A DNA stretch of 61,979 bases from a virus (Duplodnaviria; Caudoviricetes), in the IMG/VR virus record IMGVR_UViG_3300021062_000015, positions 1 to 61,979 of that record; one strand, written 5' to 3'. Both the position numbers and the translations under genes were made by a program. Below, in pieces: positions 1 through 61,979 of the stretch. Position 1 is the first letter of the stretch. The number at the start of each line of letters is the position of its first letter. The notes below the pieces were generated by a model. That model saw nothing but the letters and a program-made list of their open reading frames with translations. It made no database searches and had not been told where the DNA came from.

Positions 1-145
1 GGGCTCCAATAGGTCGATCCCCCACTTCGCTGGGGACAGAGATCGGTTTATCGTCGATCGTCATTTCAAGATGGTCGAGAGAGACGCCATTACGTTTAAT
101 GATTTCTTCGGCTAGTTCGATGTCAGGTTCGTTTTGGGGTAACAT
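1..145 (-). CDS. 5' part of an ~88-aa hypothetical protein crossing the circular junction (continues to stop at 61727)
   Basis: ATG at 145 gives MLPQNEPDIELAEEIIKRNGVSLDHLEMTIDDKP..., joining the 61727..61912 ORF; upstream AAAGGAA and TTGTCA-16-TACGTT. Confidence 0.7.
   Translation of the reverse strand, partial: MLPQNEPDIELAEEIIKRNGVSLDHLEMTIDDKPISVPSEVGDRPIGA
6..131. repeat. Terminal direct repeat (left copy), circular-assembly overlap
   Basis: 6-131 is identical to 61854-61979 (126 bp); bases 1-5 also match with a 1-nt indel. Confidence 0.95.
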
Positions 146-2100: not shown

Positions 2101-5100
2101 TTACCACAAGCCAATTGCTGTGGCACTATCCTGATACGTCTTGTCCAGTTCTCGCAACTTCGGAAGCAGGCTCGGCACCCTTCGACTGATCCATTCCTCA
2201 AAGTCTCCTTGGGAGATTTCCTTTGCCATTCCTCCCACCTTGATAGGTTGGCGCCCTTTCACGCTGGATCGTAGCTGTCGGATTGCCTTTTGCTCGTCAC
2301 CAGAAGCTTCAATGAATTCAGCTTTGATGTTCATCGCTTCGTCTACGTCCCCAATCAATAAGGCTTCCTGCATGCGATCATAGTAGGGCGAATTTGGCGT
2401 TCGGGGATACTTCCCACCAACTGGAGGTAGATCCTCTCCCAATTCCTTCGCCCATCGATTGCCGGCACGTCGGATTTCAGCCACATCCTTTTTAGCCGCA
2501 TGGATCTTAGCCGCCTTCCATTCCCCAACCAATTGCTCGGAATAGGGCCCAGCGTTCTCTTTAAGGAGAGATGTCACGTAGTTGTAGTTCGGATACTCTC
2601 CCAGAACAAAGTCATTCAGATCCCTCATTGTCAGGCGTTCTTGCTGCCACCCACGCATGATCAAGTTGTTCCAGATATTGACGAAAGGCCCGATGCTTGG
2701 GGGATCAAGAGGACTCTTCGCTCTCCCTCGAGAGACTACACTCTCCATATTCGAAGCCCAGTCGCCGATGATTCCGAACCCTCCCGCATAGACAGCATCG
2801 TGAAATAGGCGTTGCAGTATCAGTGAGACTCCTCGAAGTTCGTTCTCGTTATAGGTATTCGAGATTTCTTCAAAAGAGGCATCCAGCCGGTTCTTCCCAA
2901 AAAGCCTTTCTCTCAGCCAGTAAAGGCTGAAGCCTGTTCCGGCCGTAAAGGCCAGCCACAGGAGCAATGGGCGATAGTCTCTGACCTTTTTGCCATCGAC
3001 TTCATACCCGACGATAGCAGGCTTTAGGATGTCCACTTCAACCCTTCGAAGCATCTGGATCCCGAACTTCTGGAACTGAAACAAAAACTTCGCTGCAGGG
3101 TTTTCCATCCACAGCGGGACCTGTCGCATGTCATAACCAAATTGAGTCACATTCGCAGCGGCCCGCATCAACTTCTTCCCCTCATTCCCCGAGAGCCCTT
3201 GTTTTTTAAGCTTCTCCAAGTCGATGCCATATTTCTTCAGCTTGGCTTGAAAGATTAACGATTCTTGGCTCTTGGGATTCGCCTCCACCTTCTTCATTCC
3301 CCACCTTGCCCAATTGAGTCCTGCCGCCGCCGCCGTCGATCGCGTGAACTTTTCCACCATGGAGAACCCACCGAGCTTAAGCGATACAGAAGCAATCTTT
3401 TGCTGTAATTCCGTGAAATCACTCATCTCCGCCATGCCAGCAAGCAAATCGGATCGGAGCACACCAGCCTCTTCAGCATCACGGATTTGCTTGCCGTATT
3501 GATGCAGCGAGGCCAATCCAGGCAAGGCGTTCGACAACCCGAACTCTGGAATAGTGTTTACGAAAATCGTTGAGGCATTTCGCATCGATGTCCAAATATT
3601 CCCCAGCTTCGACGCTGTCGTATAGGTTCGGAGCCATGCCATCGTATCGTAGAACCATCCTAACTTTCGCTTCTCGTAGATCGTGTCTCGGATATGAGCC
3701 ACATAAAGTTGAGTATTTCTGCTCAGATTCCCCTCAATCGCCTTCTGGAAAGCGTCCTTGTCATTCCCGATGGCCTGCCCAAAAGCTTTGATCTGAGAGA
3801 TACGTTTTGCCCAGGAAGCGATGAAATAGGGGACAACCTCCTCAAATCCTCTCTCATAGAACCAGTCTGGGAGCTTACCCAATCGGGCCATTTCCAAGTT
3901 CGCAAAGAACTTGTTCTCAACTTCAAGAGTGAGATTTTGCTGGATGAAGAGCTTTAATTTCTCAGCATCTTCAATCCCTGTCTCCTCTCGAAGGATCTCA
4001 ATGGCTTCCAGGTAAAGCTTCGGATTTGAATCTGGATCTTCCAAAGCCTCGCGTACATCTCTTCGTAAGATTCTCGGCCAATAAGCATCTCCAAAGTCTC
4101 CAATTGGGCGCCATCCACCTTTCGCTCTCGGATCGATCACATGGACGTTGAGTTGTTTATTTACCTTCCCCGTCCACACAAACATCTTCTTCACCGCGTC
4201 GACAAACTTCTTTCCGCCATCACTCATTTTGGCGTATAAGGCATCGGCTTCAGCTTGGATCTCTGGAGTCCTACCGCTTTCGCGGATCTTCATGTACTCC
4301 TCAAACTCTTTGGAAGCCACCTTCAGATCTGCTTTCTTGAGACTTCGAACGATGTCATTAAATGGCTTCGAGAGTCGCCCAACGAGATCGGCATTCAGAT
4401 CATAGTACTCATCAATCTTATCAGCCAGAGACGAAAGCCTTCCGCCTGCTTTCCGCAAAGTATCCGTCGTGGATTTGTAAATAAGCCCGCCATTCCGCAA
4501 TCGCTGCCACGCGCTGGGGATCATCTCTCCCCGAAGCTTCTTTCTTAATTCTTCAGCCGCCAGAGTCGCTTCTTTGCCGAGAAAGGCTCCGGCTTTCGCT
4601 TGTTTTTCCACTGCAGGAGTGGACTCCGTTTCCCTCGTGAAAAGTGTCTGTCCTTCTCCAAGCACACTCTCCTTCATGGCGGGAGTGATGTCGATCGAGT
4701 GAGCCTTAAACGTCCCCACCTCTTCCTCCTCACCATTCATAACATCTTCTTCTTGGACTGCTGCAATTTCCAGGCCTCCAACCTTCGCCCCCCACTTCTT
4801 CCCATACTTCGCCATGAACTGAGGAAGGATTTGATCATAAAATCCCTTCATGCCAACGCCCCCGATTTTTAATCCTTCGCCTTCGAAAACCTCAGTTCCA
4901 CCAGCGGGAATATTCTTAGATTTCTCAGCCAGATCTTTTCCGACATACTCACTTAGTTTTTCAATAGGAACTTCCTGGGCTACCTGGGTTTGTTCATTTG
5001 CATAAGCACGATTAGGGAGTAACGCTTTTACGTTGTATAATTCCTTGTCATCATTAATGACTTTCTGGATTAGCAACTTATCAACTTGCTTACTCAAATC

Positions 5101-8100
5101 ATACCTTGCCGCCTGCTGTTCTCCCGTAGTCCAGGCAACTTTGTCGTAGCTGGGAACGTATTTGATTGACTGGCTTTTACCACCATTTAAAATAGCGTCA
5201 TGCTTATTCAAATACTCTGCCAGCAATGCGGAGCTAGGTTCAGAACCTTTATGTGTCAAATCGACAAGAACGCTGGGAGATTTTGTTCTGTTAGATGTAG
5301 ACAGATTTCCCCCATCACCAGAGAGAAGATCGCCCGCTCTAAGAGGGGAGGTAAGCCACACAACTTCTCTCGGTTTAATATCCGATGTCTTCAATGTGGG
5401 AAGGAGTTCCTTATTTGTCCCTGCCACAAGGGACGCCGTAAGTGCTGTTCTAAGGCTTGTTCCAACCTTTTTAAGCGCATTCCTAATCCCAAGCGATATC
5501 GTCGTTCTACTATCGGCGGGGAGCGACTGGATGACCACGTTCGGATTGCTTACCAACTTCTTGGTAGAGATCGAGTTCGAGGCAAGAGCGTTCATCACAT
5601 TAACGGGCAAATTCATGACAACAGCATCTCGAACCTGCTCGTAATTCATGAGCGGAAGCATAGAGATCTCCACCGGAGACAGGACGCCGCCGGACGGATC
5701 TTCACTCCCAAAGAAATTCTGCACCATTTCCCGAACGCTCTCTGGCTTGGTGATGTTATTCCAATCGCTACTACCTGACTCCGCAGCCCAACGCAGCATT
5801 CGCTTCATCACGAGCTCATGCCAGGTTTTCTTGAATGGAGCGTCGGAAACCCGTCCTTCCTCTTTGAGAGCATATTTTAAATCTCGCAGTTCAATCAATT
5901 TGTCGGCCATCGAAGAATGTTCATCAGGCAACCCGTTCTTGCTCGGACTCGCTTCAATGGCAGCCTTTAACCATTTAGGCGCATCCTGCGTCTCTTTTTC
6001 TAAGAGTTCAATGCGTGACGGATCGACCTTGTATCCCTCCTTCTTCCCTTTCTGATGCCAATCACTCTGCACCTCTTCAACGAAGAGCACTTTCTTTCCA
6101 TCGGAGTCCGTCCGCTCATTGAATCGCACATGAGCAAGAACATTTGGCTCATCGAAGTGTGAAGATTGGAAATTCTCAGTTGTCGAAAAATGTCCACGCT
6201 TTGCCTGAATATAGGCGCGTGATGCAGCTCCGTGGTTTTCCCAATCTTCCCAAGCTTCCTCTTTACTGAGATTGTAATTCAGTTTGGCCCATTCAGGGAA
6301 ACTATCGAAATCCTCATGAGCGCGGACGGGCAACGTAAACAACAACTCTCGATAGTTCTGTCCTCCTGGAAGTTGGTATTGAGAGAATTTTGTTTCCCCA
6401 GCAACGCTGCCTATGAATGAAACATCACGTTCAGTTAAGCCCAATCCAACCCTCAAAGCTTTAAGACGAGAATCCGCTTCATGATGGCCGATTTGACCAC
6501 CACGGTCTCTCAAATTAAGAATCTTTTCCTCTTCTGCTTTATACTTTTCGATTGCAGATTTCTTTTCTGGAGAGAAAGTCGTGCCCTTCACCACCTCCTC
6601 CACCTTCACCTCGTTCTGCTGCAGAAAATCCAATACCTCTTGCTTTGTTACCTTCTCTTTCCCCTGCAGAAAATCTTGGAGTCCTACCCATTTGATCTCC
6701 TCAGTCTTCACTCCATTCTGAGGGTTCATCACGATTCCCATGATCTGGCCCGCTGAAGCTGCATTCGGCATCTTCTTCTCAATCACTCTTTGAAGTTGAG
6801 AGAAAAATGGAGGAGCGATTGCAGGTTCTGTTTCCCGTGTCCAAAACATCCCGTTCTCAGGAGACTCCAAAAACTTCTTCAATTCTCCTTCAGGATTGGA
6901 AAGGATCACATCAATGGGAACTGTATGCCCATCATAGGTCTTTCTAAAATTTCCTCCATGCGCGTCGACGGCCAAGACGTTGTCTTTAGGTCGATAAAAC
7001 TTATTGAGATCAACTTGCTGAAAACCGAACTTCTTAAGGAAATCGGAGATCTCCGATTTTGAAGGATCCGTCCCCAGAATCAAAGGTTGAGAAATGACGA
7101 TATGGACATCGCCATTCGAATCTTCGATTAGCCCCTCAAACCCTACATCTTGGTTAAAAACTTTATTAAAGAGATTCCAGCGGGCAATATATTCAAGAGG
7201 TGTCGCATCCTCTAAGACAATCTCTCCATTTTTCAGGAAAGGAGTTGCTCCATACATGGAGCCTTGGGTGACTTTAAAAACTAAGCCCGTTTTTTGGTCG
7301 AGGTAGACGTCATGCTCACGACCACTGTCAACAAGAGGGTTACGGCTGATCAGCTCGTCGTAACGGAACTCTTCTTGTAACCGGACCAGGTCTTGTAAGG
7401 CATTTCGCTCAATTTCCGCTGCCTCACCCCGGTCCCCGGCCTTGAGATATACTTGGCGTACTCCTCGAACTCCTCGGAGGTGAACTTCGGCGGATTTAAG
7501 GAGATCCTTTTTAGATCTTCGAGTGTCGTCGTTACGGCGGCTTTCATTGGACTCTCCTAAGTTACCATCGGTTGTGTCTCTTGTAAAGAGCTCGCCCTGA
7601 CTTCCAGGGTCTTTAAATAGGTCTCGGGTATTGTCCCCACCTTTCTTTCCACTCTCTTTGGATTTTTCAAATTCCTGCTGAGCCTGAAGCTTTCGCAAGG
7701 ATTCCATGGATGGCTTGGGAACTTCGAAAAGAGGTTTTCCTTCCGTCTCACGCGTCTGGAGAGCAGGCACTCCTTCTAGGGCCGATTCAATATCCTGAAC
7801 CGTTCGCTTTAGGATCTCTCCCATCACGCCTTGGTCAACTTGGCGAGCGATCTGTCGGAGTCTGAATAGAGATTCTCTTACCCAATCCACGATCTTATTG
7901 AGGATAGCCAGCCAGCGAGTATCTGTGGTGAGATTATCCGCTCGGAGTTGGACGAATTGGCGGGCAAGTTCTGCCGCCATCACGATCACATCTCTTGGCT
8001 TTTTATCCAGATGCTCGATTAGAGCTTCATATGTCGTAATGCTCGAGGGTTGAGACAAGTCTTTATTCCCTTGGTAGAGATTCCAGGAATCGACCATTGC

Positions 8101-11100
8101 TTGCTCGATTGACTCGGCCTTAGTGATTTCTCCACGGCTTCGGTATTCAGACGCAAGATCCCGAATCTCACCAACGAGATCACCTAAATCTTTTCGAACG
8201 TAAGCGTCAAACGATCCTTTGCCAGACGTCTTCCATCGATCTCGTAAAATCGAAAGATGAACAGCATGAATCAGTTCTTCTTGGAATTGATCGCGGATGA
8301 GGGTGGTGCCAGCCTCTTCATTTCCCTTCGCTTCGGCATCCCGCAAGACTCGGGCAGGATCGTATTTGACGACTATTGTGCCGTCTGCCAGAAAATGCGC
8401 TCTGGGCAATTCCCCGTCGGAGGTTTCAAGTACTTCGGATCCGAAGGCTCGAAGGGCATCCCGTAAGCTAGATGTACTGCGTGATCGCTGTAAAGCGAGG
8501 CGTAATCCACGTCCCCCTCCGTCGGACGAGCGAAGCTGAAGATCCTGCCTTCCTTCTCGATTCTCTTGAGAAGTTCCTGTTTCCTGATCTCCTCGATGCT
8601 GTCCTCCAGTCGATTCATCGGTGGAAACATAAGCCTTCTTCACCTCTTCGTCAATACGGCGTCTTTCGCCTATTCCTTTTTTCTTCTTCGGCTTGGCAGG
8701 AAGAGCCTTTTCCAAAGCATCAGCCATGGAGACTAACTTCGGCTTGGACTCTTCTTCCTTTCGGAGCTTATCGAGCTTGGCCAAGTACTCCGCTTGCCCC
8801 ACCGTTCCCTTCGGAATCTTCACCCCATTTTGCTTCAGGAGAGCGATTCCCGTATCCGTCAGCACGGGTTCGCCATTCGGTCCCGTTTCCAAGAAACCCG
8901 CTTTAGCCAGTCGTGCCTTCGATTCCTTCGTCGGCTGTCCACCTTTGAGCACAGCTTCGAGATTGATGAAATCAGACTTGGTTTGAGCTTCTTCGGTTTG
9001 TTGGGCCAGTTGCTCTTCAGCGGAAACTTGTTTCGGCACCAACATCTCCAAAGCTTCTGAGATCTTCTGGCGCAGAGGTTCGGGCCAGGTGATCTTCACC
9101 ATCTGGTCAGGATTGATGGCGTTAGGCACTTCGATGGATCCTCCCGCAGCCAATTGTCGAATCGCTTGCAGATCCACTTCGCTTCCCGTCCCGAGATTTT
9201 CCCAGGCTTGGGCGAGTTCTTGTGTTGCCGCTGCAACCTCGGGCGTGATCTCAAAATTGTCAGAGGCTTGTCCAGGGAGATGGGAAACAGCTTCCGAAGG
9301 CTCAGGCAACGCTCCAGGGATCGTTACTCCAGTCCCTTGCACTCCGTTGATATCAACATCATGGCCCTGGAGTTCTTCAACCGGAGCTTGCGGTTGGGTG
9401 CTCGGAAGTTCAGGAGGCAACTGAACAGAGGAAACCGGAGTCGTCAGAGCTTCCCACGCAGTTTTCCAATCGCCTTTCTGCAGAGCCAACATGGCTCGCA
9501 TCTCCAGAGTCTTAGATTGCTGTCGGTCCTTGCGATAGTCAGAGTTCTTCCAGTCTTCCTTAAAATCTTCGATAAAATTAGTCAGCCCTTCCTTGATTTG
9601 CTTCGCGCTCTCAGGAGCATTCGCAAGGGCCGAGGCACCTACTGCCGGTCCCACCGCCATCATTTCTTGCACCGCATTGGCCACCCGTTCCCGAGAGGTC
9701 ATGTTCTCAGCCAAGAAATCATACGTCGCTTGAGGCAGTCCTTCTCGCGTCGCACCACTAGCAACATCCATAGCCCCGTGTGCAAGCTTTTGGGAGAGAG
9801 AAGCCCCCTTCGTCGCCTTGATGGTATTGGCCGCATTTTTCACAAGCCCCATGGCTGTTACCGTGGCAATCGGTCCAAAAGGATCAGTTGCGCCACCCAT
9901 CCATCCGGCGCCTGCAGCTTCCTTCACAGAATCAGGAGTACGGTTTAGAAGTTCGGCAAGATCTCCATGGCCAGAAGCTGAGAGAGCCATTAAGAGTTCT
10001 GGAGTTTGGAGGAGGTCAGAGGCGAGTTGCCCCGTCTTTCGCGCTCGATCTTCATCCTCACGTCGGAGTCGATATTGGTAGTTTGGTGTCGAAATATTCT
10101 CGATCAACTTCGCAAGAGCTTCCGCATCGCCAGAGCGGATTCTCTTCACCAAAGCCTGATTATCTGGATGTTCGATGGAATGAATGTCCTGTTTGAGATC
10201 CAGCCCCTTCCACTTCGTTCCATATCGTTCACGGTCAATCGTCGAGCTATAAATCTGTTCTTCTCGGGTCCGTCCAGCAAGCTGCAGTCGAGCGGCCGCT
10301 TTCTTCATCTTCTCTTCGTCCCCATCAGCCATCGCTTCCGCATACTCCGTCGCTGCGGATTCAATCACTTCTTTGGCCTTACTGCGGTTAAGAAGGAGAT
10401 TTTCCTTCACCGTCTGCCCGCTATTTCGCAAAGCTTCTTGCAATCGCAATGCCGCCAGTTCTTCAGTCGAAAGATCTTCAACCTTCTTTTTCCCAGCCAC
10501 ATCAAAAACATCTTTGGAAAGTCCGAGAGCTTGTAAGCCGAGAGAAGAGATTCCCCCAAGCATGGAAGCACCAAGGCCGGCAACCGATCCTGCAGTTTGT
10601 TCGGCAACCCCCTTCTTCTCTTTGGGATCCACGAACATATCTTTCGCAGCTGTTCCCACGTCCTTAGCCACATTTTTCCACCATTCCACATCCGTCGGGC
10701 GTAGCTTCACCGTCTTCACCGCTTCACGGATCTTTACGGGATCCACTTGGGTTGGCTGTTCTTCAAATCGAGATTTAAACTGCGCGATTGCTTGGGGGGT
10801 AAATTCAAAGCCATTCGGCAACTGCACCCCGAGCTTCTTCATCGCAACCCGCGCTGTTGCTGGGAGGATGGCGCCAGTCTCAACCCCATCGAGAACCTCA
10901 AAAGGCTTTGGAACGAACTCCAAATCTTCCTTCTTCTTGGGCTCAAAGCGGGCCAAGAAATCTTTATCCAATTCAAGATCGGAAGGCACTTCCGGTAAGG
11001 AAGCTTCAGCCTCCAATTCTTCAACCTTCGGCACCACCACCCGATTCGAATTCAAATCATTTTGCGCCACATATTTGCCAGCAGGGCCAGCCACCTTGAC

Positions 11101-11304
11101 ATCAGGAGCATCTTCGAAGTCATCCCAGTTGAATTCACGCTTAGCCACAACTTGGCTATTGGCTATTGGCTGATTGGCGATTTGAGTAGGAGGTTCATAA
11201 TCCGGGAAATCATCCCAGTTAAACGACTTTGCTTTCGGTGCCGATGGAGAGACTACAGATTCAGGCGCGTCCTCAAAATCATCCCAATTGAACGTAGGAG
11301 GCAT
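2101..11304 (-). CDS. Giant polyvalent / internal virion (ejected) protein, 3067 aa
   Basis: Last late gene; FNWDDF repeats; EELIHAVH peptidase-like motif; polyvalent-protein kinase-like domain (~6880-7340); HFDEPNVLAHVR...EEVQSDWHQ domain typical of phage large polyvalent proteins. Confidence 0.85.
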   Translation of the reverse strand: MPPTFNWDDFEDAPESVVSPSAPKAKSFNWDDFPDYEPPTQIANQPIANSQVVAKREFNWDDFEDAPDVKVAGPAGKYVAQNDLNSNRVVVPKVEELEAEASLPEVPSDLELDKDFLARFEPKKKEDLEFVPKPFEVLDGVETGAILPATARVAMKKLGVQLPNGFEFTPQAIAQFKSRFEEQPTQVDPVKIREAVKTVKLRPTDVEWWKNVAKDVGTAAKDMFVDPKEKKGVAEQTAGSVAGLGASMLGGISSLGLQALGLSKDVFDVAGKKKVEDLSTEELAALRLQEALRNSGQTVKENLLLNRSKAKEVIESAATEYAEAMADGDEEKMKKAAARLQLAGRTREEQIYSSTIDRERYGTKWKGLDLKQDIHSIEHPDNQALVKRIRSGDAEALAKLIENISTPNYQYRLRREDEDRARKTGQLASDLLQTPELLMALSASGHGDLAELLNRTPDSVKEAAGAGWMGGATDPFGPIATVTAMGLVKNAANTIKATKGASLSQKLAHGAMDVASGATREGLPQATYDFLAENMTSRERVANAVQEMMAVGPAVGASALANAPESAKQIKEGLTNFIEDFKEDWKNSDYRKDRQQSKTLEMRAMLALQKGDWKTAWEALTTPVSSVQLPPELPSTQPQAPVEELQGHDVDINGVQGTGVTIPGALPEPSEAVSHLPGQASDNFEITPEVAAATQELAQAWENLGTGSEVDLQAIRQLAAGGSIEVPNAINPDQMVKITWPEPLRQKISEALEMLVPKQVSAEEQLAQQTEEAQTKSDFINLEAVLKGGQPTKESKARLAKAGFLETGPNGEPVLTDTGIALLKQNGVKIPKGTVGQAEYLAKLDKLRKEEESKPKLVSMADALEKALPAKPKKKKGIGERRRIDEEVKKAYVSTDESTGGQHRGDQETGTSQENREGRQDLQLRSSDGGGRGLRLALQRSRSTSSLRDALRAFGSEVLETSDGELPRAHFLADGTIVVKYDPARVLRDAEAKGNEEAGTTLIRDQFQEELIHAVHLSILRDRWKTSGKGSFDAYVRKDLGDLVGEIRDLASEYRSRGEITKAESIEQAMVDSWNLYQGNKDLSQPSSITTYEALIEHLDKKPRDVIVMAAELARQFVQLRADNLTTDTRWLAILNKIVDWVRESLFRLRQIARQVDQGVMGEILKRTVQDIESALEGVPALQTRETEGKPLFEVPKPSMESLRKLQAQQEFEKSKESGKKGGDNTRDLFKDPGSQGELFTRDTTDGNLGESNESRRNDDTRRSKKDLLKSAEVHLRGVRGVRQVYLKAGDRGEAAEIERNALQDLVRLQEEFRYDELISRNPLVDSGREHDVYLDQKTGLVFKVTQGSMYGATPFLKNGEIVLEDATPLEYIARWNLFNKVFNQDVGFEGLIEDSNGDVHIVISQPLILGTDPSKSEISDFLKKFGFQQVDLNKFYRPKDNVLAVDAHGGNFRKTYDGHTVPIDVILSNPEGELKKFLESPENGMFWTRETEPAIAPPFFSQLQRVIEKKMPNAASAGQIMGIVMNPQNGVKTEEIKWVGLQDFLQGKEKVTKQEVLDFLQQNEVKVEEVVKGTTFSPEKKSAIEKYKAEEEKILNLRDRGGQIGHHEADSRLKALRVGLGLTERDVSFIGSVAGETKFSQYQLPGGQNYRELLFTLPVRAHEDFDSFPEWAKLNYNLSKEEAWEDWENHGAASRAYIQAKRGHFSTTENFQSSHFDEPNVLAHVRFNERTDSDGKKVLFVEEVQSDWHQKGKKEGYKVDPSRIELLEKETQDAPKWLKAAIEASPSKNGLPDEHSSMADKLIELRDLKYALKEEGRVSDAPFKKTWHELVMKRMLRWAAESGSSDWNNITKPESVREMVQNFFGSEDPSGGVLSPVEISMLPLMNYEQVRDAVVMNLPVNVMNALASNSISTKKLVSNPNVVIQSLPADSRTTISLGIRNALKKVGTSLRTALTASLVAGTNKELLPTLKTSDIKPREVVWLTSPLRAGDLLSGDGGNLSTSNRTKSPSVLVDLTHKGSEPSSALLAEYLNKHDAILNGGKSQSIKYVPSYDKVAWTTGEQQAARYDLSKQVDKLLIQKVINDDKELYNVKALLPNRAYANEQTQVAQEVPIEKLSEYVGKDLAEKSKNIPAGGTEVFEGEGLKIGGVGMKGFYDQILPQFMAKYGKKWGAKVGGLEIAAVQEEDVMNGEEEEVGTFKAHSIDITPAMKESVLGEGQTLFTRETESTPAVEKQAKAGAFLGKEATLAAEELRKKLRGEMIPSAWQRLRNGGLIYKSTTDTLRKAGGRLSSLADKIDEYYDLNADLVGRLSKPFNDIVRSLKKADLKVASKEFEEYMKIRESGRTPEIQAEADALYAKMSDGGKKFVDAVKKMFVWTGKVNKQLNVHVIDPRAKGGWRPIGDFGDAYWPRILRRDVREALEDPDSNPKLYLEAIEILREETGIEDAEKLKLFIQQNLTLEVENKFFANLEMARLGKLPDWFYERGFEEVVPYFIASWAKRISQIKAFGQAIGNDKDAFQKAIEGNLSRNTQLYVAHIRDTIYEKRKLGWFYDTMAWLRTYTTASKLGNIWTSMRNASTIFVNTIPEFGLSNALPGLASLHQYGKQIRDAEEAGVLRSDLLAGMAEMSDFTELQQKIASVSLKLGGFSMVEKFTRSTAAAAGLNWARWGMKKVEANPKSQESLIFQAKLKKYGIDLEKLKKQGLSGNEGKKLMRAAANVTQFGYDMRQVPLWMENPAAKFLFQFQKFGIQMLRRVEVDILKPAIVGYEVDGKKVRDYRPLLLWLAFTAGTGFSLYWLRERLFGKNRLDASFEEISNTYNENELRGVSLILQRLFHDAVYAGGFGIIGDWASNMESVVSRGRAKSPLDPPSIGPFVNIWNNLIMRGWQQERLTMRDLNDFVLGEYPNYNYVTSLLKENAGPYSEQLVGEWKAAKIHAAKKDVAEIRRAGNRWAKELGEDLPPVGGKYPRTPNSPYYDRMQEALLIGDVDEAMNIKAEFIEASGDEQKAIRQLRSSVKGRQPIKVGGMAKEISQGDFEEWISRRVPSLLPKLRELDKTYQDSATAIGLW
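5166..5193 (+). promoter_or_regulatory. sigma70-type promoter for the nested HNH gene (leaderless)
   Basis: TTGACT-16-TAAAAT with the ATG at 5200, 6 nt after the -10. Confidence 0.65.
5200..5778 (+). CDS. HNH homing endonuclease nested antisense inside the giant gene
   Basis: CxxC zinc fingers (CLQCGKEF...CSKAC) followed by the HNH core DHVRIAYQLLGR...VHHINGQIHDNSISNL...H. Confidence 0.85.
   Translation: MLIQILCQQCGARFRTFMCQIDKNAGRFCSVRCRQISPITREKIARSKRGGKPHNFSRFNIRCLQCGKEFLICPCHKGRRKCCSKACSNLFKRIPNPKRYRRSTIGGERLDDHVRIAYQLLGRDRVRGKSVHHINGQIHDNSISNLLVIHERKHRDLHRRQDAAGRIFTPKEILHHFPNALWLGDVIPIATT
7350..7547 (-). CDS. Nested +1-frame small protein (65 aa) at the front of the kinase domain
   Basis: Own promoter; AGGAGAG 4 nt before the ATG; helical protein-like sequence PKFTSEEFEEYAKYISR. 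Confidence 0.6.
   Translation of the reverse strand: MKAAVTTTLEDLKRISLNPPKFTSEEFEEYAKYISRPGTGVRQRKLSEMPYKTWSGYKKSSVTTS
7559..7587 (-). promoter_or_regulatory. Internal sigma70-type promoter
   Basis: TTTACA-17-TAACTT with extended -10 TG. Confidence 0.6.
8373..8618 (-). CDS. Nested +1-frame small protein (81 aa) at the front of the peptidase-like domain
   Basis: ATG 7 nt after a -10 box; MNRLEDSIEEIRKQELLKRIEKEG amphipathic helix. Confidence 0.6.
   Translation of the reverse strand: MNRLEDSIEEIRKQELLKRIEKEGRIFSFARPTEGDVDYASLYSDHAVHLAYGMPFEPSDPKYLKPPTGNCPERIFWQTAQ
8626..8654 (-). promoter_or_regulatory. Internal sigma70-type promoter (leaderless)
   Basis: TTGACG-17-TATGTT. Confidence 0.65.
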
Positions 11305-30060: not shown

Positions 30061-32255
30061 GCCGCCATCTCCTGAGGAGGAGGCTCCGGTTGAGGTTGTT
30101 GCTGCGCAGGCGCCTGCTGAATAATCTCTTGGATCGTCCCCACAAGCATCATCAGCTCATTCACAACTGATTTCTCAGGCGTTTTATCCATGCCTCCGCC
30201 CTGGATTTGCTGTGCTGCCGCTTGGATCTTGCCCGCCACTTCAGCCAGGAGCGCATCTTGGTTCTGGTTGGCCTGCAATTCTTCCATGGAAGGCAAGATC
30301 GAGTCCGCTTCGATAATCCCAATCGAATTGAGTAATTGAATGAAGAGGTCTCGGAGTCGCACCTGATACTCAGGAGGCGTACCAATCCAAGTTTGGACGA
30401 TCTGCAGAGCTCCCTGGATTGCTTGGGCCCGTTGTTGCTGCCCATACTTGGAGAGCACAATCTTCACGTCAAAGTCGAGTTCTCGGATGTCTTCAGGGTT
30501 GACCCGCGCCACCACCTCATGGAGGCCCTTGTTGTACCGGAACACGCGCACTTGCTCCACGTTCTGTTGAATCAGTCGCACATTACCCGATATTTCGCGC
30601 TCGAAAGACCCCTGGCATCGTCGGATGAACATCCGGTAGAGTTTATTACCTTCTTCGATGATGCTCTTAGTTCCCGTCGCCGTCGCCGTACTGGGCAGGC
30701 TCGAAACGTCGCCCTGTGCCGCGTTGGAGATCCCAGTAATCAACTGGATGAGAGACACGAAGAACTGGAAGATCTGCCATTCAAAGGCCTCCATCTGTGG
30801 CATCACGTAGTAACCAAATGAATCCGCCGCGTTTGCACTCTCTTTTAAAAGAGTTTGGTCTCCAGGTTTAATATCGCGGGGCGGAGGCTTTATAAAGTTG
30901 CCTTGCTTCACCCAGGCAAGAGGGTTAGCCGACATGCTCGAGCGGTAATTCACTCGGTTAAAGACCTTATCCACAAAGTCTTGGGCCATCTTCAAGTAAT
31001 CGTAAGGCCCGTAACTCCACCACCTGCCAGGATTTTGGAAGAACCCGTGGACTTCAAATGGAAGCTTGCAATCGGCATACACATTCACGAGGAGCTCGTA
31101 CCACACGATGAGTTTCGTCGATCGCTCCATCAGCACGATGATTTCTTCGACAATCCCATCTCCATCGATGTCGTATTTCAGGTAACATTCAGCGAATTGC
31201 AGGGTTTTAAAGAGTTGATCTTGCGTATCTACTCCCATGATCGATGAGGCCGATTCACCGAGATAGGTCTTGGGCGCCGACTTATTGGCCTTATCCCCCT
31301 CGTTTTCAGTCTTGGAAGTCGCATCGGGTAAACCTTTCAACTTCTGCAAGTTCTCGAGCACCCAGCGGGAGTTCTTAAAAGCTTCTTCGGAGAGATCCCC
31401 ATCCATCGACTGCATCACTTTCTCCATGATTTCGTGCAGTTTCTGGTCAAACACATGGGCGACCACGGGCGATTTCTTGATCTCGCTTACCGTCATGTCA
31501 CACCAAAAGTCTTCAAAAGGGATCAACTCACTCTTTGCGTTGTCGTAATGCGTAATTGAGTCTTTGATCGGCACATCCACATACTCATGATTTGGGGTGA
31601 TCTCAGGCCCCATCATCTCGACGCCTTCAGGATCCAGGAACTTGAGGTAACGCCGATCTCGACCAAGCCCCATGGTGAGAGGGCTGGCTTTCAAAATCAC
31701 TTCAGGGTGTCCTTCCTGCACGGGCTGTCCATCCTGTCCCATCACAGGTCCATCAGGGCCATGCAGTTGCGTCTCGATTCGAGTAAAGTAAGATCGTTCT
31801 ACAGCCCAAGAGCGTTTCTTGATCGCCGTTCCTTCCGTGCAAGTTACCCAAAGCGTTTCACTCCCGCTTTGGCGGAAGTTCATCTGTTCCATGATCTCCC
31901 AGAGCCAATACTTCGTGAATTGATCGGCCGCTTCCTTATCATCCACGTCTTGGGCTTTGGCGATAAAAGGCTGATCGTTAGCCAGTAACTCATCTTCCAC
32001 CTTCGAGGCGTAGGAGGTTGCTACCCCTTTCACAAGTGGCACACCGATATTGGAGAGTTGATAGATCGACCCCGCCTTCGCACGATGGCTAAAGTCATCC
32101 ATATGTTCCTTACGGATCTCTTGCACCCGTTTCACGCGGTCGCGTCGTCCAGCTTCAATCGCCTTCATCCGTTCATCGATGATTGTGGCCAGTCGTTCCA
32201 AACGAAAAGTGTCCAGCACCGGAGGAGCTGCGAGTTTCATCTTCAAAGTCTTCAT
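30057..32255 (-). CDS. Portal protein
   Basis: 732 aa; ECYLKYDIDGDG, ITGISNAAQG, TATGT motifs of podovirus-type portals. Confidence 0.9.
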   Translation of the reverse strand: MKTLKMKLAAPPVLDTFRLERLATIIDERMKAIEAGRRDRVKRVQEIRKEHMDDFSHRAKAGSIYQLSNIGVPLVKGVATSYASKVEDELLANDQPFIAKAQDVDDKEAADQFTKYWLWEIMEQMNFRQSGSETLWVTCTEGTAIKKRSWAVERSYFTRIETQLHGPDGPVMGQDGQPVQEGHPEVILKASPLTMGLGRDRRYLKFLDPEGVEMMGPEITPNHEYVDVPIKDSITHYDNAKSELIPFEDFWCDMTVSEIKKSPVVAHVFDQKLHEIMEKVMQSMDGDLSEEAFKNSRWVLENLQKLKGLPDATSKTENEGDKANKSAPKTYLGESASSIMGVDTQDQLFKTLQFAECYLKYDIDGDGIVEEIIVLMERSTKLIVWYELLVNVYADCKLPFEVHGFFQNPGRWWSYGPYDYLKMAQDFVDKVFNRVNYRSSMSANPLAWVKQGNFIKPPPRDIKPGDQTLLKESANAADSFGYYVMPQMEAFEWQIFQFFVSLIQLITGISNAAQGDVSSLPSTATATGTKSIIEEGNKLYRMFIRRCQGSFEREISGNVRLIQQNVEQVRVFRYNKGLHEVVARVNPEDIRELDFDVKIVLSKYGQQQRAQAIQGALQIVQTWIGTPPEYQVRLRDLFIQLLNSIGIIEADSILPSMEELQANQNQDALLAEVAGKIQAAAQQIQGGGMDKTPEKSVVNELMMLVGTIQEIIQQAPAQQQPQPEPPPQEMAA

Positions 32256-33970
32256 TGATGCTCCAATTCAAACCCACCGGGTTTAAGATAAAGGTTCCCT
32301 TCCTGCAGGGCCGCGAGAAAGGCCCACTCACACTTACGAAAATTCTTATGTCTCAACCACAGGAGAGATTCAGAGGCGTAATCTCTAGGTCGCACATCGA
32401 GTTGATAGAGGAGGATAAGCTTATCCCCATTGGTTTCCTTGATGTTCCCCGTCTTAGAAACGAGATAGTAGAGTTTTACATACTCCTGGCGTCGCCAAGG
32501 GTCCAGGCGCTGGGCCATTGCCATTTGTCCGAGAATATCATGCACCATCCCGTCCTTGGCCCGCCACCGGTCCTTCGCATGCTTCATCATCATGTCGCCA
32601 GCTAGCATCTTTGCGTAGATCCCGAGCGAGACGAGGAGCACTGCAAAAGTTCCATACTTCAAAGCGTTAGAGAACCATCCACGAACCGAGAAACGCGACT
32701 CACCGTGAGTTGCCGGCGCCGCTACGATTCCGCTAGCAGCGATTGCCGCGAGCATCATAAAGAGTCCACCGAGAGGGTTCCACGTAGAACAAATGAGGAA
32801 AGCGACCAAAACACCCGCAAACCCTCTCACATACCAGTGTCTTACTCGGATATTCACCCAGTTACGAATGAGAGCGATCGAATAGAGGCAGATCCCGAAT
32901 CCTACCCAGCCTATCGTTACCAGTAACTCAATCGGCCAGGAGTGGAAACGGTCGTAAATCGCCATATCTCCACCGGCAAGAGCCTGCCAACCTCGCTTTA
33001 CATCAGATCCTTCGCGGTCGATCAGAGCTCTTTGAGAATCCACCCCCCATCCGAATGGGAAGATCCCATGGGCATAAGCTTGTTTAGCAAGTTCAGAGCG
33101 CGGCCCGCTTCCTACCGAAGAGAAACTGTAGTGCTTGAGTTTATATCGCAGGGTAGGGGAAAAAGAGAGCGCCACCCCGAAGAGCAGCGCCATTGCAACG
33201 AAGATCGCGAAGACGATACGTGCACGCTGTATCGTCGTCATCATGCTTTTTGCTGAATAATGGAGGTAAACAACGAAAGCACACCCGAGTAAGAGGGCCA
33301 GGAGAGAAGAGCGCACTCCATGGAGGCCAATCACAGTAAAAGCCCAGATCATGGTTCCGAGCGCAAACACCCATCGCAGAGAGGTGAAGGAGCGATCCAG
33401 GAGATCGCCTTTAAACTTCGAGTCAAGAGCCCACGCCAGTAAGTAAGGAGCTACCAAAGCCGCTAGGTGACAGACCCCCATCTTTACCGAGAACACCGCT
33501 TCCACGAGATTCCACCCGGAATCTTGCTCGAAATACCACCGAGAAAGGCAGTAAAGACCAGTTACCGATAAAAGCAGAGCTACTAAAGTCCAGGCATAGA
33601 GTTCAAACGGTCGATCAGGGCTTACCTCATTACCATCTTCGTCATGCTCTATCGGTTTGATCTTCCAGAAACAAAGCCAGGCAAAGATCCAGATCGTCGC
33701 GAGAGTCAACCATCCTTCCACACGGATCGGCTCACCCACAAATCCTTGAAAAAGAGTGGTGCACACAGAAGTTGCCGTCGAATAAGCTGAGATCAAGAGC
33801 ACCGCCACCCCGAGTTTCAACAGAAGTCCGCCGTCACGATAAGCGGAACGGAAGTCGACGAGAAAGAAAGAGGCGATTACGAGAAAGCATTGCTTGGCAA
33901 GATCGGTATGAAGTCCGAACCATGGATCCCAGGGTAGAAGAAAGAAACCGAGCAGGACCAGGTATCTCAC
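32252..33970 (-). CDS. O-antigen ligase / O-oligosaccharyltransferase (Wzy_C, GT-C fold) family membrane protein
   Basis: About 12 hydrophobic helices; VRSSLLALLLG, PFGWG and RFHSWPIELLVTIGWVG motifs; TPR-like C-terminus. Confidence 0.8.
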   Translation of the reverse strand: MRYLVLLGFFLLPWDPWFGLHTDLAKQCFLVIASFFLVDFRSAYRDGGLLLKLGVAVLLISAYSTATSVCTTLFQGFVGEPIRVEGWLTLATIWIFAWLCFWKIKPIEHDEDGNEVSPDRPFELYAWTLVALLLSVTGLYCLSRWYFEQDSGWNLVEAVFSVKMGVCHLAALVAPYLLAWALDSKFKGDLLDRSFTSLRWVFALGTMIWAFTVIGLHGVRSSLLALLLGCAFVVYLHYSAKSMMTTIQRARIVFAIFVAMALLFGVALSFSPTLRYKLKHYSFSSVGSGPRSELAKQAYAHGIFPFGWGVDSQRALIDREGSDVKRGWQALAGGDMAIYDRFHSWPIELLVTIGWVGFGICLYSIALIRNWVNIRVRHWYVRGFAGVLVAFLICSTWNPLGGLFMMLAAIAASGIVAAPATHGESRFSVRGWFSNALKYGTFAVLLVSLGIYAKMLAGDMMMKHAKDRWRAKDGMVHDILGQMAMAQRLDPWRRQEYVKLYYLVSKTGNIKETNGDKLILLYQLDVRPRDYASESLLWLRHKNFRKCEWAFLAALQEGNLYLKPGGFELEHQ

Positions 33971-38736: not shown

Positions 38737-39248
38737 GAGACACCGTCACATTGATTGTGACCGGCACGGGCGCCGTAAAACAACTGGTAGCGCAGAATGA
38801 AAAAGAGATCTAAAACTCCAAATTCTTTAACGGCATCAAGTCGCATTCGGTTTCGTCTTGAGCGTTCATCGCTTACTGCGTTGCCAACCCTAGCCCGGTT
38901 TGCGGCTTTGATGCCCTTCAAGAATTCGAGCGCGAGCTTAGCGGACTTGGGACTGAGTGACGGGAGAGGCAGCATATTTGAAGGAGAGGGTCATTTAGTT
39001 TCGTCCCCCTTATACGTCAAGAGGGGCAAAGAGAGGTATGGGGTATTTACCCGCTATGTAGCATCACCCCTAAACCATTGCAAGTCATGAATCTACCCAA
39101 TCATTCCGACACCGCTTTCGCCAGCCTCTTTTATCAAGAGCTTGCTGAGTTTACTCCCACGTCCGTGTTACTGGACGACGATTTAGTCCGCGATTCAGAA
39201 GCGGACATCCTGTCCGAAATCAAACCAACCAACTGATCCTATCCTATT

Positions 39249-61749: not shown

Positions 61750-61979
61750 TGTCTCGTTCCAACAAAATCTCCCAATCCTGGCTTTCAAGATCGTATTGGA
61801 AGACCTCTTTCGTCTTCTTATTGAGGATGATCAGGATTTCAGCCAAGGGGCTCCCAATAGGTCGATCCCCCACTTCGCTGGGGACAGAGATCGGTTTATC
61901 GTCGATCGTCATTTCAAGATGGTCGAGAGAGACGCCATTACGTTTAATGATTTCTTCGGCTAGTTCGATGTCAGGTTCG
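61727..61979 (-). CDS. 3' part of the junction-spanning hypothetical protein
   Basis: Open frame from the window end to TGA at 61727. Confidence 0.65.
   Translation of the reverse strand, partial: EPDIELAEEIIKRNGVSLDHLEMTIDDKPISVPSEVGDRPIGSPLAEILIILNKKTKEVFQYDLESQDWEILLERDIILRKFD
61854..61979. repeat. Terminal direct repeat (right copy)
   Basis: Identical to 6-131. Confidence 0.95.

Follow-up and report, generated by a model that had tools for sequence, protein, structure and literature searches.

A +1 open reading frame with a promoter-like site in a linker of a giant phage gene: tentatively, a by-product of linker composition

The window analysed here is the complete 61,979-base virus record IMGVR_UViG_3300021062_000015 (Caudoviricetes), and its largest gene encodes a protein of 3067 amino acids (aa), P0001. 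Within one interdomain linker of that gene, and on the same strand, lies a small open reading frame (ORF), P0002, which is read in the +1 frame and is preceded by a promoter-like site of the sigma-70 type. We tentatively conclude, with a probability of about 0.45, that P0002 is not a gene but a compositional by-product, namely the +1 reading of a hydrophilic linker rich in glycine, arginine and serine (G/R/S), plus chance matches. The analysis shows the anatomy of the site, how its features compare with chance, homology in the main frame and a lack of conservation in +1; that neither a transcript nor a peptide is made from P0002 we infer. Taken singly, no feature of the arrangement exceeds chance.

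Reading of the minus strand bears out the layout that an earlier note on this DNA had described: the hexamers TTGACG and TATGTT separated by 17 nucleotides (nt), a further 7 nt, and then the ATG (8618..8616) of an 81-codon +1 ORF that ends at TAG 8375..8373. A second in-frame ATG, at 8630, lies inside the -10-like hexamer and extends the ORF to 85 codons. This ORF is read in +1 with respect to the 3067-aa ORF, and the frame is open for 88 codons after TGA 8642..8640. Both hexamers are encoded by main-frame RIDEEVKKAYVS, and the ATG at 8618 comes from main-frame ACC GAT GAA. With a spacer within 16-18 nt and a start codon about 7 nt past the -10 hexamer, the layout has the geometry of a sigma-70-type promoter with a leaderless start. 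The hexamers match the sigma-70 consensus at just 9 of 12 positions (5 of 6 and 4 of 6), so that the description 'near-consensus' was too generous. TTGACG-17-TATGTT is the sole promoter-like site (at least 9 of 12) on the sense strand of the giant gene; none of that quality was found in the phage's divergent intergenic region, 38976-39248. A scan of the region for repeats found no tandem array; it gave two short direct repeats of two copies each, an inverted pair of 9 nt, and nothing else. One of the direct repeats, of 13 nt (12 of 13 identical), lies at 8335..8347 and 8455..8467, 120 nt apart, and in the main frame each copy codes for LRDA. The sole Rfam match across the window is a tRNA elsewhere. 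An assembly error as the source of the +1 ORF is ruled out: from 7300 to 9700 there are 0 differences and 0 gaps between the independently assembled contigs of two soil-metagenome runs (depth 59 and 16). A third soil-metagenome run covers just 9443-9613.

We compared the length of P0002 with two null models, 1000 synonymous shuffles and 1000 codon permutations of the giant gene; codon permutation and synonymous mutation are the single-genome tests for overlapping genes set out in Schlub et al. 2018 (PMC6188560). The gene has three +1 runs of at least 88 codons (99, 92 and the P0002 run), against 4.52 in the shuffles and 3.99 in the permutations, and the probability that the longest +1 run reaches 88 codons is 0.998 under the former and 0.994 under the latter. 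The length of P0002 is not beyond chance. Whereas the candidates described in Schlub et al. are longer than expected, P0002 is not (P 0.93-0.998). When the main-frame protein is held fixed, 30-38% of shuffles leave the P0002 stretch open in +1. All 7 of the 7 same-strand alternative-frame ORFs of at least 60 aa in the giant gene are in +1; therefore the frame that P0002 shares with a second ORF of this kind, at 7350, is generic and carries no meaning, although it had been taken as telling.

The number of promoter-like sites is not beyond chance either. The sense strand of the gene has 1, against 2.67 ± 1.62 in synonymous shuffles, and both strands together have 4, against 6.8 ± 2.4. Looser layouts (an ATG 5-12 nt past the -10 hexamer, and an ORF of at least 40 codons in any frame) occur 4 times in the window, both strands counted, and at least 2 of these are antisense to genes. 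One such layout lies antisense within the giant gene, at 5166..5778 on the plus strand, where TTGACT-16-TAAAAT (10 of 12) is followed after 6 nt by ATG 5200 and a 192-codon ORF. It outdoes the 'leaderless' layout of P0002, and as it is presumably spurious it serves as a useful warning.

The composition of the linker would account for the open frame. Over residues 893-954 the main frame holds 45% G+R+S and 15% hydrophobic residues, compared with 19% and 30% over the whole of P0001, so the claim that the ORF overlies a G/R-rich main-frame linker was right. Linkers rich in G/R/S stand at the same place in relatives (fractions of 0.39 in P0010, 0.42 in P0015 and 0.35 in P0018). T is the first base of all three stop codons, and the second base of a main-frame codon is the first base of the +1 codon. 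Because stops begin with T and the offset is +1, only codons for F, L, I, M and V can yield +1 stops. The hydrophobic share of the linker is half of the usual, and for that reason the linker would be expected to stay open in +1; 88 codons of linker should hold 1.08 +1 stops, compared with an average of 3.23 for the gene as a whole. Once the next domain sets in, its hydrophobic beta-strands would close the +1 frame, and the frame does close at ATA|G within strand IVVKY. On this account the layout of a '+1 ORF just before a domain' would arise from the composition of linker and domain. A purine-rich linker would also read in +1 as a sequence rich in E, K, R and I, helix-like and protein-looking, and the 9-of-12 hexamer pair and the ATG would be chance matches inside the codons for IDEEVKKAYV..TDE. 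The earlier note had placed the ORF just before a domain marked by QEELIHAVH; that motif does follow, at residues 1008-1016, but the domain starts at about residue 955, and the last 23 or so codons of P0002 overlap its first predicted beta-strands.

The product that P0002 would encode has no recognised relative. Pfam and PHROG gave no match; a comparison with 64 members of the family of the downstream domain gave no homologue (best E 1.7); tblastn against phage genomes gave no match; and a word search among longer proteins gave no homologue. The ESM Atlas returned unnamed viral clusters at 0.90, with low recognition. A single-sequence AlphaFold2 model has a predicted local distance difference test score (pLDDT) of 60 and a predicted template-modelling score (pTM) of 0.25, with one helix at aa 7-27 and low confidence otherwise. 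Nothing indicates a role for P0002 as an inhibitor or regulator.

The conserved frame appears to be the main frame, and all of the evidence on this point leads there. The only relative with DNA for comparison is the locus L002 (n = 1; two genomes in all), which encodes P0005, a protein of 1568 aa and the best homologue of the downstream domain, with 36% identity over 258 residues. In an ungapped, domain-anchored comparison, residues 925-954 align with P0005 in the main frame (p 0.0066), and the +1 reading of the same DNA does not (p 0.60). Identity with L002 over the overlap is 24 of 96 in the main frame and 9 of 91 in +1, where shuffles give 10.0 ± 2.7 (P 0.29). The two-genome comparison showed no extra synonymous-site constraint over the P0002 overlap: third-position identity is 0.33 there, compared with 0.33 and 0.32 outside, and at identical residues it is 5 of 21, compared with 40 of 80 and 120 of 329. 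When the +1 peptide was held fixed and its codons were resampled, the main frame remained open in 0.28% of 300,000 trials; because it is so rarely open, the main frame is the constrained one. A codon log-likelihood model (LLR), trained on the phage's other genes, gave a main-frame score of 0.4, compared with -33.4 ± 10.6 under this resampling. Smith-Waterman comparison with the stretch of 130 aa that precedes the domain in each of 54 homologues gave noise, with a mean z of 0.22 for +1 and 0.14 for the main frame. One outlier for +1, P0008 (z 4.3, a weak LxDSIxE..LK match), was not trusted, given 108 comparisons.

Several results weigh against the view that P0002 is a by-product, and they concern either the joint occurrence of its features or the codon statistics of the +1 frame. 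The strict combination (promoter-like site, ATG 5-9 nt past the -10 hexamer, and alternative-frame ORF of at least 60 codons) arose in 6 of 500 shuffles. The expectation that such pairs would stand out from synonymous shuffles was borne out in part: the pair is rare in them, but site counts and ORF length are ordinary, and looser layouts of the kind occur 4 times in the window. Across 8634..8395 the +1 LLR is about 9 per 50 codons, equal to the true-frame genome mean of 9.2, with the main frame at about -1, and by codon score the P0002 segment is the top alternative-frame segment of the giant gene. With the main-frame protein fixed, the +1 LLR is 14.3, compared with -1.5 ± 6.0 (P 0.001); P is 0.003 given an open frame and 0.037 after local matching of third-position GC content (GC3), and in +2 there is no comparable excess (z 0.49). 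The choice of this region was post hoc, other genes also contain windows with z of 2.4-3.0, and there is a weak correlation between the coding-likeness z and low hydrophobicity (rho -0.14). In the linker, the main-frame GC3 values of the window and L002 come close together, at 0.41 and 0.43, from expected values of 0.50 and 0.32.

The same direction is taken by the layout in L002. There, the homologous linker holds GTGACA-17-TATATT (10 of 12), the best-matching promoter-like site anywhere in the gene; a +1 ATG follows 10 nt past the hexamers, and its 68-codon ORF stops 2 codons from the homologous position. A layout of this kind at that place arose in 28 of 5000 shuffles of L002 (P 0.0056) and in 17 of 3000 of the window gene (P 0.0057), the ATG distance having been widened from 5-9 to 5-12 nt after L002 had been seen. 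An open +1 frame with an ATG is present in 1 of 1 relatives with DNA, which is weak at n = 1. The longest +1 open run of L002, of 117 codons, covers the homologous linker, where 2.9-4.1 stops are expected; P for this openness is 0.031 from the ATG, 0.004 for the whole run and 0.10 gene-wide, so that the L002 counterpart is locally long in the manner of Schlub-type candidates (P 0.004-0.03). The open frame is the rare part of the L002 layout: the amino-acid sequence by itself gives its hexamers a 42% chance of occurring, and gene-wide +1 stop counts match expectation. The top coding-likeness z of the L002 gene falls at the same linker; the absolute coding score of the +1 product is below zero (-2.1 over 67 codons, with the main frame at about 17 per 50 codons), and the main-frame score dips to about 1-4 at the linker, compared with a mean of 17.5. 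The two promoter-like sites are out of register in a MAFFT alignment of the linker DNA, and offset in a protein-guided alignment too. Searches for closer relatives added no further locus: word searches gave only P0001 or nothing, and viral contigs, phages and plasmids gave nothing. DNA scans with P0015, P0010, P0006, P0008, P0009 and the alignments A1 and A4 returned the L002 contig again (as L003 and L006), and the remaining loci from these scans (L004 and L005) are without the domain.

The rival reading, that P0002 is a real nested gene, we consider less likely than a by-product but serious. It would encode a small (68-85 aa), fast-evolving and probably largely disordered +1 protein of the linker; an internal promoter of the sigma-70 type would give rise to its mRNA, with little or no leader, and the arrangement would be retained in at least two distantly related soil phages; the product may, as one possibility, be a regulator of the next domain. 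In its favour are the recurrence of the layout at the homologous linker in two genes of 36% identity, each at a shuffle P below 0.006, the open +1 frame of L002 where some 3-4 stops are expected, the restriction of the coding-likeness excess to +1 in the window together with the position of the top z of the L002 gene, and the linker GC3 of about 0.42 in both phages, which we read as a likeness to typical second-codon-position composition. Embedded +1 genes do exist in phages, lambda Rz1 within Rz being an example described in PMC6139136. Against it, the +1 peptides are dissimilar on homologous DNA, synonymous sites carry no extra constraint, the family, phage tblastn and longer-protein searches found no homologue of P0002, and the +1 coding score of L002 is negative. 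No well-placed ribosome site precedes P0002 or the +1 ORF of L002, though the phage's own genes carry AGGAG-type sites. The promoter-like site of L002 is readily supplied by its amino acids, the distance allowed was widened post hoc, the comparison covers two genomes, and the predicted structure amounts to one helix with low confidence elsewhere. Were the gene real, the open frame and the start signals would have been retained and the peptide sequence would not, which would fit a fast-evolving disordered product. That two distant soil phages retain a small leaderless +1 gene, driven by a promoter within the coding sequence, in the linker before an uncharacterised helical domain (motif EE-x-x-IH) of their giant injected virion protein is a proposal that we hold to be less probable than not.

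The codon statistics that favour a nested gene would also suit a relic of a change of frame, in which +1 is the older coding frame, displaced through compensated indels or an out-of-frame inserted fragment, and the G/R/S-rich main frame is an out-of-frame translation tolerated in a mere linker. From about 8610 to 8450, codon statistics in +1 are those of a genuine gene (a score of about 9 per 50 codons, beside the genome mean of 9.2 and a main frame at about -1), and its text resembles ordinary protein where the main frame is of low complexity. We regard this as quite improbable: the two runs agree exactly, which leaves no assembly error; no relative has a main frame that resembles the +1 product (best E 1.7 of 64, mean z 0.22 over 54); and it is in the main frame, not +1, that residues 925-954 align with the closest relative. 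The low frame-discriminating score of the main frame is as amino-acid composition predicts (0.1, compared with 1.8 ± 2.4), its synonymous codon use over the linker is typical (2.45, compared with 4.1 ± 3.8), and its LLR of 0.4 beats the out-of-frame expectation of -7.2 ± 3.5 among the 833 resamplings that were open (P 0.011). Similarly improbable, finally, is a function of the nucleic-acid signal alone, either as an internal promoter serving the 3' part of the gene and the region beyond it, or as a +1 ribosomal frameshift that would give a truncated N-terminal product ending at 8373, with the +1 ORF not a free-standing gene. Promoter-like sites in the same linker of both phages, and the open +1 frame of both, would suit it; the hexamer matches, however, lie within chance counts, and inspection by eye of 8639-8610 found no recognisable +1 shift site. 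A by-product of linker composition is the reading that we prefer.

The second +1 ORF, P0003, lies over the next linker, before the kinase domain, and had been presented as another occurrence of the promoter layout. It has no promoter-like site of at least 9 of 12; the best found upstream by eye, TTTACA-17-TAACTT, matches at 8 of 12. A putative ribosome site, TAGGAGAG, is placed 5 nt before its ATG, and a Shine-Dalgarno sequence with an ATG and an ORF of at least 60 codons arises in 20% of 600 shuffles. The +1 coding-likeness of P0003 (z 3.1-3.5, P ~1e-4, post hoc) is the strongest excess in the giant gene. With the second ORF lacking a comparable promoter, and +1 ORFs no commoner than in shuffles, the 'design rule' that the earlier note had drawn from the two cases is not supported, and nothing tested lends support to its wider picture of polyvalent proteins as strings of cassettes with overprinted regulators.

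The downstream domain (residues 955-1200) is conserved and uncharacterised, and its motif EE-x-x-IH, at residues 1009-1013, stands inside QEELIHAVH (window 8283..8257). Against 1.84 billion representatives, a full HMMER search gave 64 homologues at E <= 1e-3, P0001 itself not counted. An AlphaFold2 model based on a 14-row alignment has a pLDDT of 81.7 and a pTM of 0.75, with three beta-strands at 956-981. Pfam placed no family on the domain, in P0001 or in 8 homologues. The label 'peptidase-like' that had been given to it finds no footing: the domain has no Pfam hit and no HExxH motif (EELIHAVH gives HxxH), and no clear fold match was obtained (Foldseek best E 0.1; VIA-align Z at most 6.5, to generic helical proteins). 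Pfam detected no zincin peptidase domain in P0001.

The sole Pfam match of P0001 is Kinase-PolyVal, at residues 1303-1468 (E 2.5e-13), and on that ground P0001 is a polyvalent virion protein as Iyer et al. 2017 (PMC5512222) use the term. Like the polyvalent proteins described there, it is giant and multidomain, stands beside virion genes and carries Kinase-PolyVal, and one relative carries LPD37; unlike them, its post-linker domain belongs to no Pfam family, and no zincin domain was detected. In the main text of Iyer et al. the words 'overlapping' and 'linker' have 0 occurrences, and no nested ORFs are described there. The window encodes an SU10-type portal, a capsid protein, an adaptor, a terminase, an integrase and one tRNA-Met, and the genes for the SU10-type portal, capsid and adaptor stand upstream of the giant gene.

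Other observations on P0001 and the record are as follows. At its extreme N-terminus (residues 5-63; 11133..11292, minus strand) P0001 carries the motif FNWDDF(E/P)D three times, at residues 5, 28 and 58. The C-terminal 818 residues (2104..4557, minus strand) share 43% identity with the C-terminal half of P0005 (about 750-1568), so that a conserved C-terminal module without a Pfam family is common to the 3067-aa and the 1568-aa protein. A 572-aa protein (32252..33970, minus strand) has a match to Wzy_C (O-antigen ligase; E 3.9e-9), and its position, between the portal and terminase genes, is unusual for such a protein. An exact direct repeat of 126 nt lies at the ends of the record, at 6..131 and 61854..61979 (offset 61,848), and contigs from two runs, of 61,873 and 61,875 nt, have different start points. 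Because of the end repeat and the differing start points, the genome is probably circular or circularly permuted, at about 61.85 kb, though the record is classed as linear. Coordinates of the features discussed are given in Table 1.

Table 1. Features of the giant gene of the window and of the homologous linker in L002
Feature	Coordinates	Strand	Remarks
Giant main-frame gene	2101..11304	minus	single ORF, 3067 aa (P0001); largest gene, encloses all window features listed below
-35-like hexamer TTGACG	8654..8649	minus	read from the sequence
-10-like hexamer TATGTT	8631..8626	minus	17-nt spacer after TTGACG
Hexamer pair TTGACG-17-TATGTT	8626..8654	minus	within main-frame codons for IDEEVKKAYV
+1-frame ORF P0002	8373..8630	minus	85 codons (ATG 8630) or 81 (ATG 8618)
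Main-frame interdomain linker, residues 893-954	8443..8628	minus	45% G+R+S, 15% hydrophobic
Conserved uncharacterised domain, residues 955-1200	7705..8442	minus	three predicted beta-strands, then helices
+1-frame ORF P0003	7350..7547	minus	65 codons; over the next linker, before the kinase domain
Kinase-PolyVal domain, residues 1303-1468	6901..7398	minus	Pfam
Homologous linker layout in L002	3846..4091	plus	GTGACA-17-TATATT, +1 ATG 3885, 68-codon +1 ORF

The mRNA of lambda cI transcribed from P_RM is leaderless. The geometry of P0002 resembles that case, in that it fits a transcript starting from the A of the ATG (-10 hexamer, 7 nt, ATG); in L002 the distance is 10 nt, unlike the leaderless geometry of cI. 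Lambda Rz1, embedded in Rz in the two-component spanins, is like P0002 a small ORF wholly within a larger phage gene and in its +1 frame, and embedded products of the Rz1 type are described as rich in disorder-promoting residues (PMC6139136). Rz1 differs in having a lipoprotein signal, a proven function and recurrence in many phages, whereas P0002 has no signature and no peptide conservation with L002, and the gene around it encodes a polyvalent virion protein and is not a lysis gene.

If P0002 is a by-product, as we tentatively favour, protein-like +1 ORFs ending at the next domain are a product of hydrophilic linkers in giant phage proteins; 'hidden genes' in such places could therefore not be called from sequence alone, and a common +1 frame would be meaningless. 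If the nested gene is true, giant virion-protein genes would hide small genes missed by gene callers, and the linker before this domain family would be a defined place in which to seek them.

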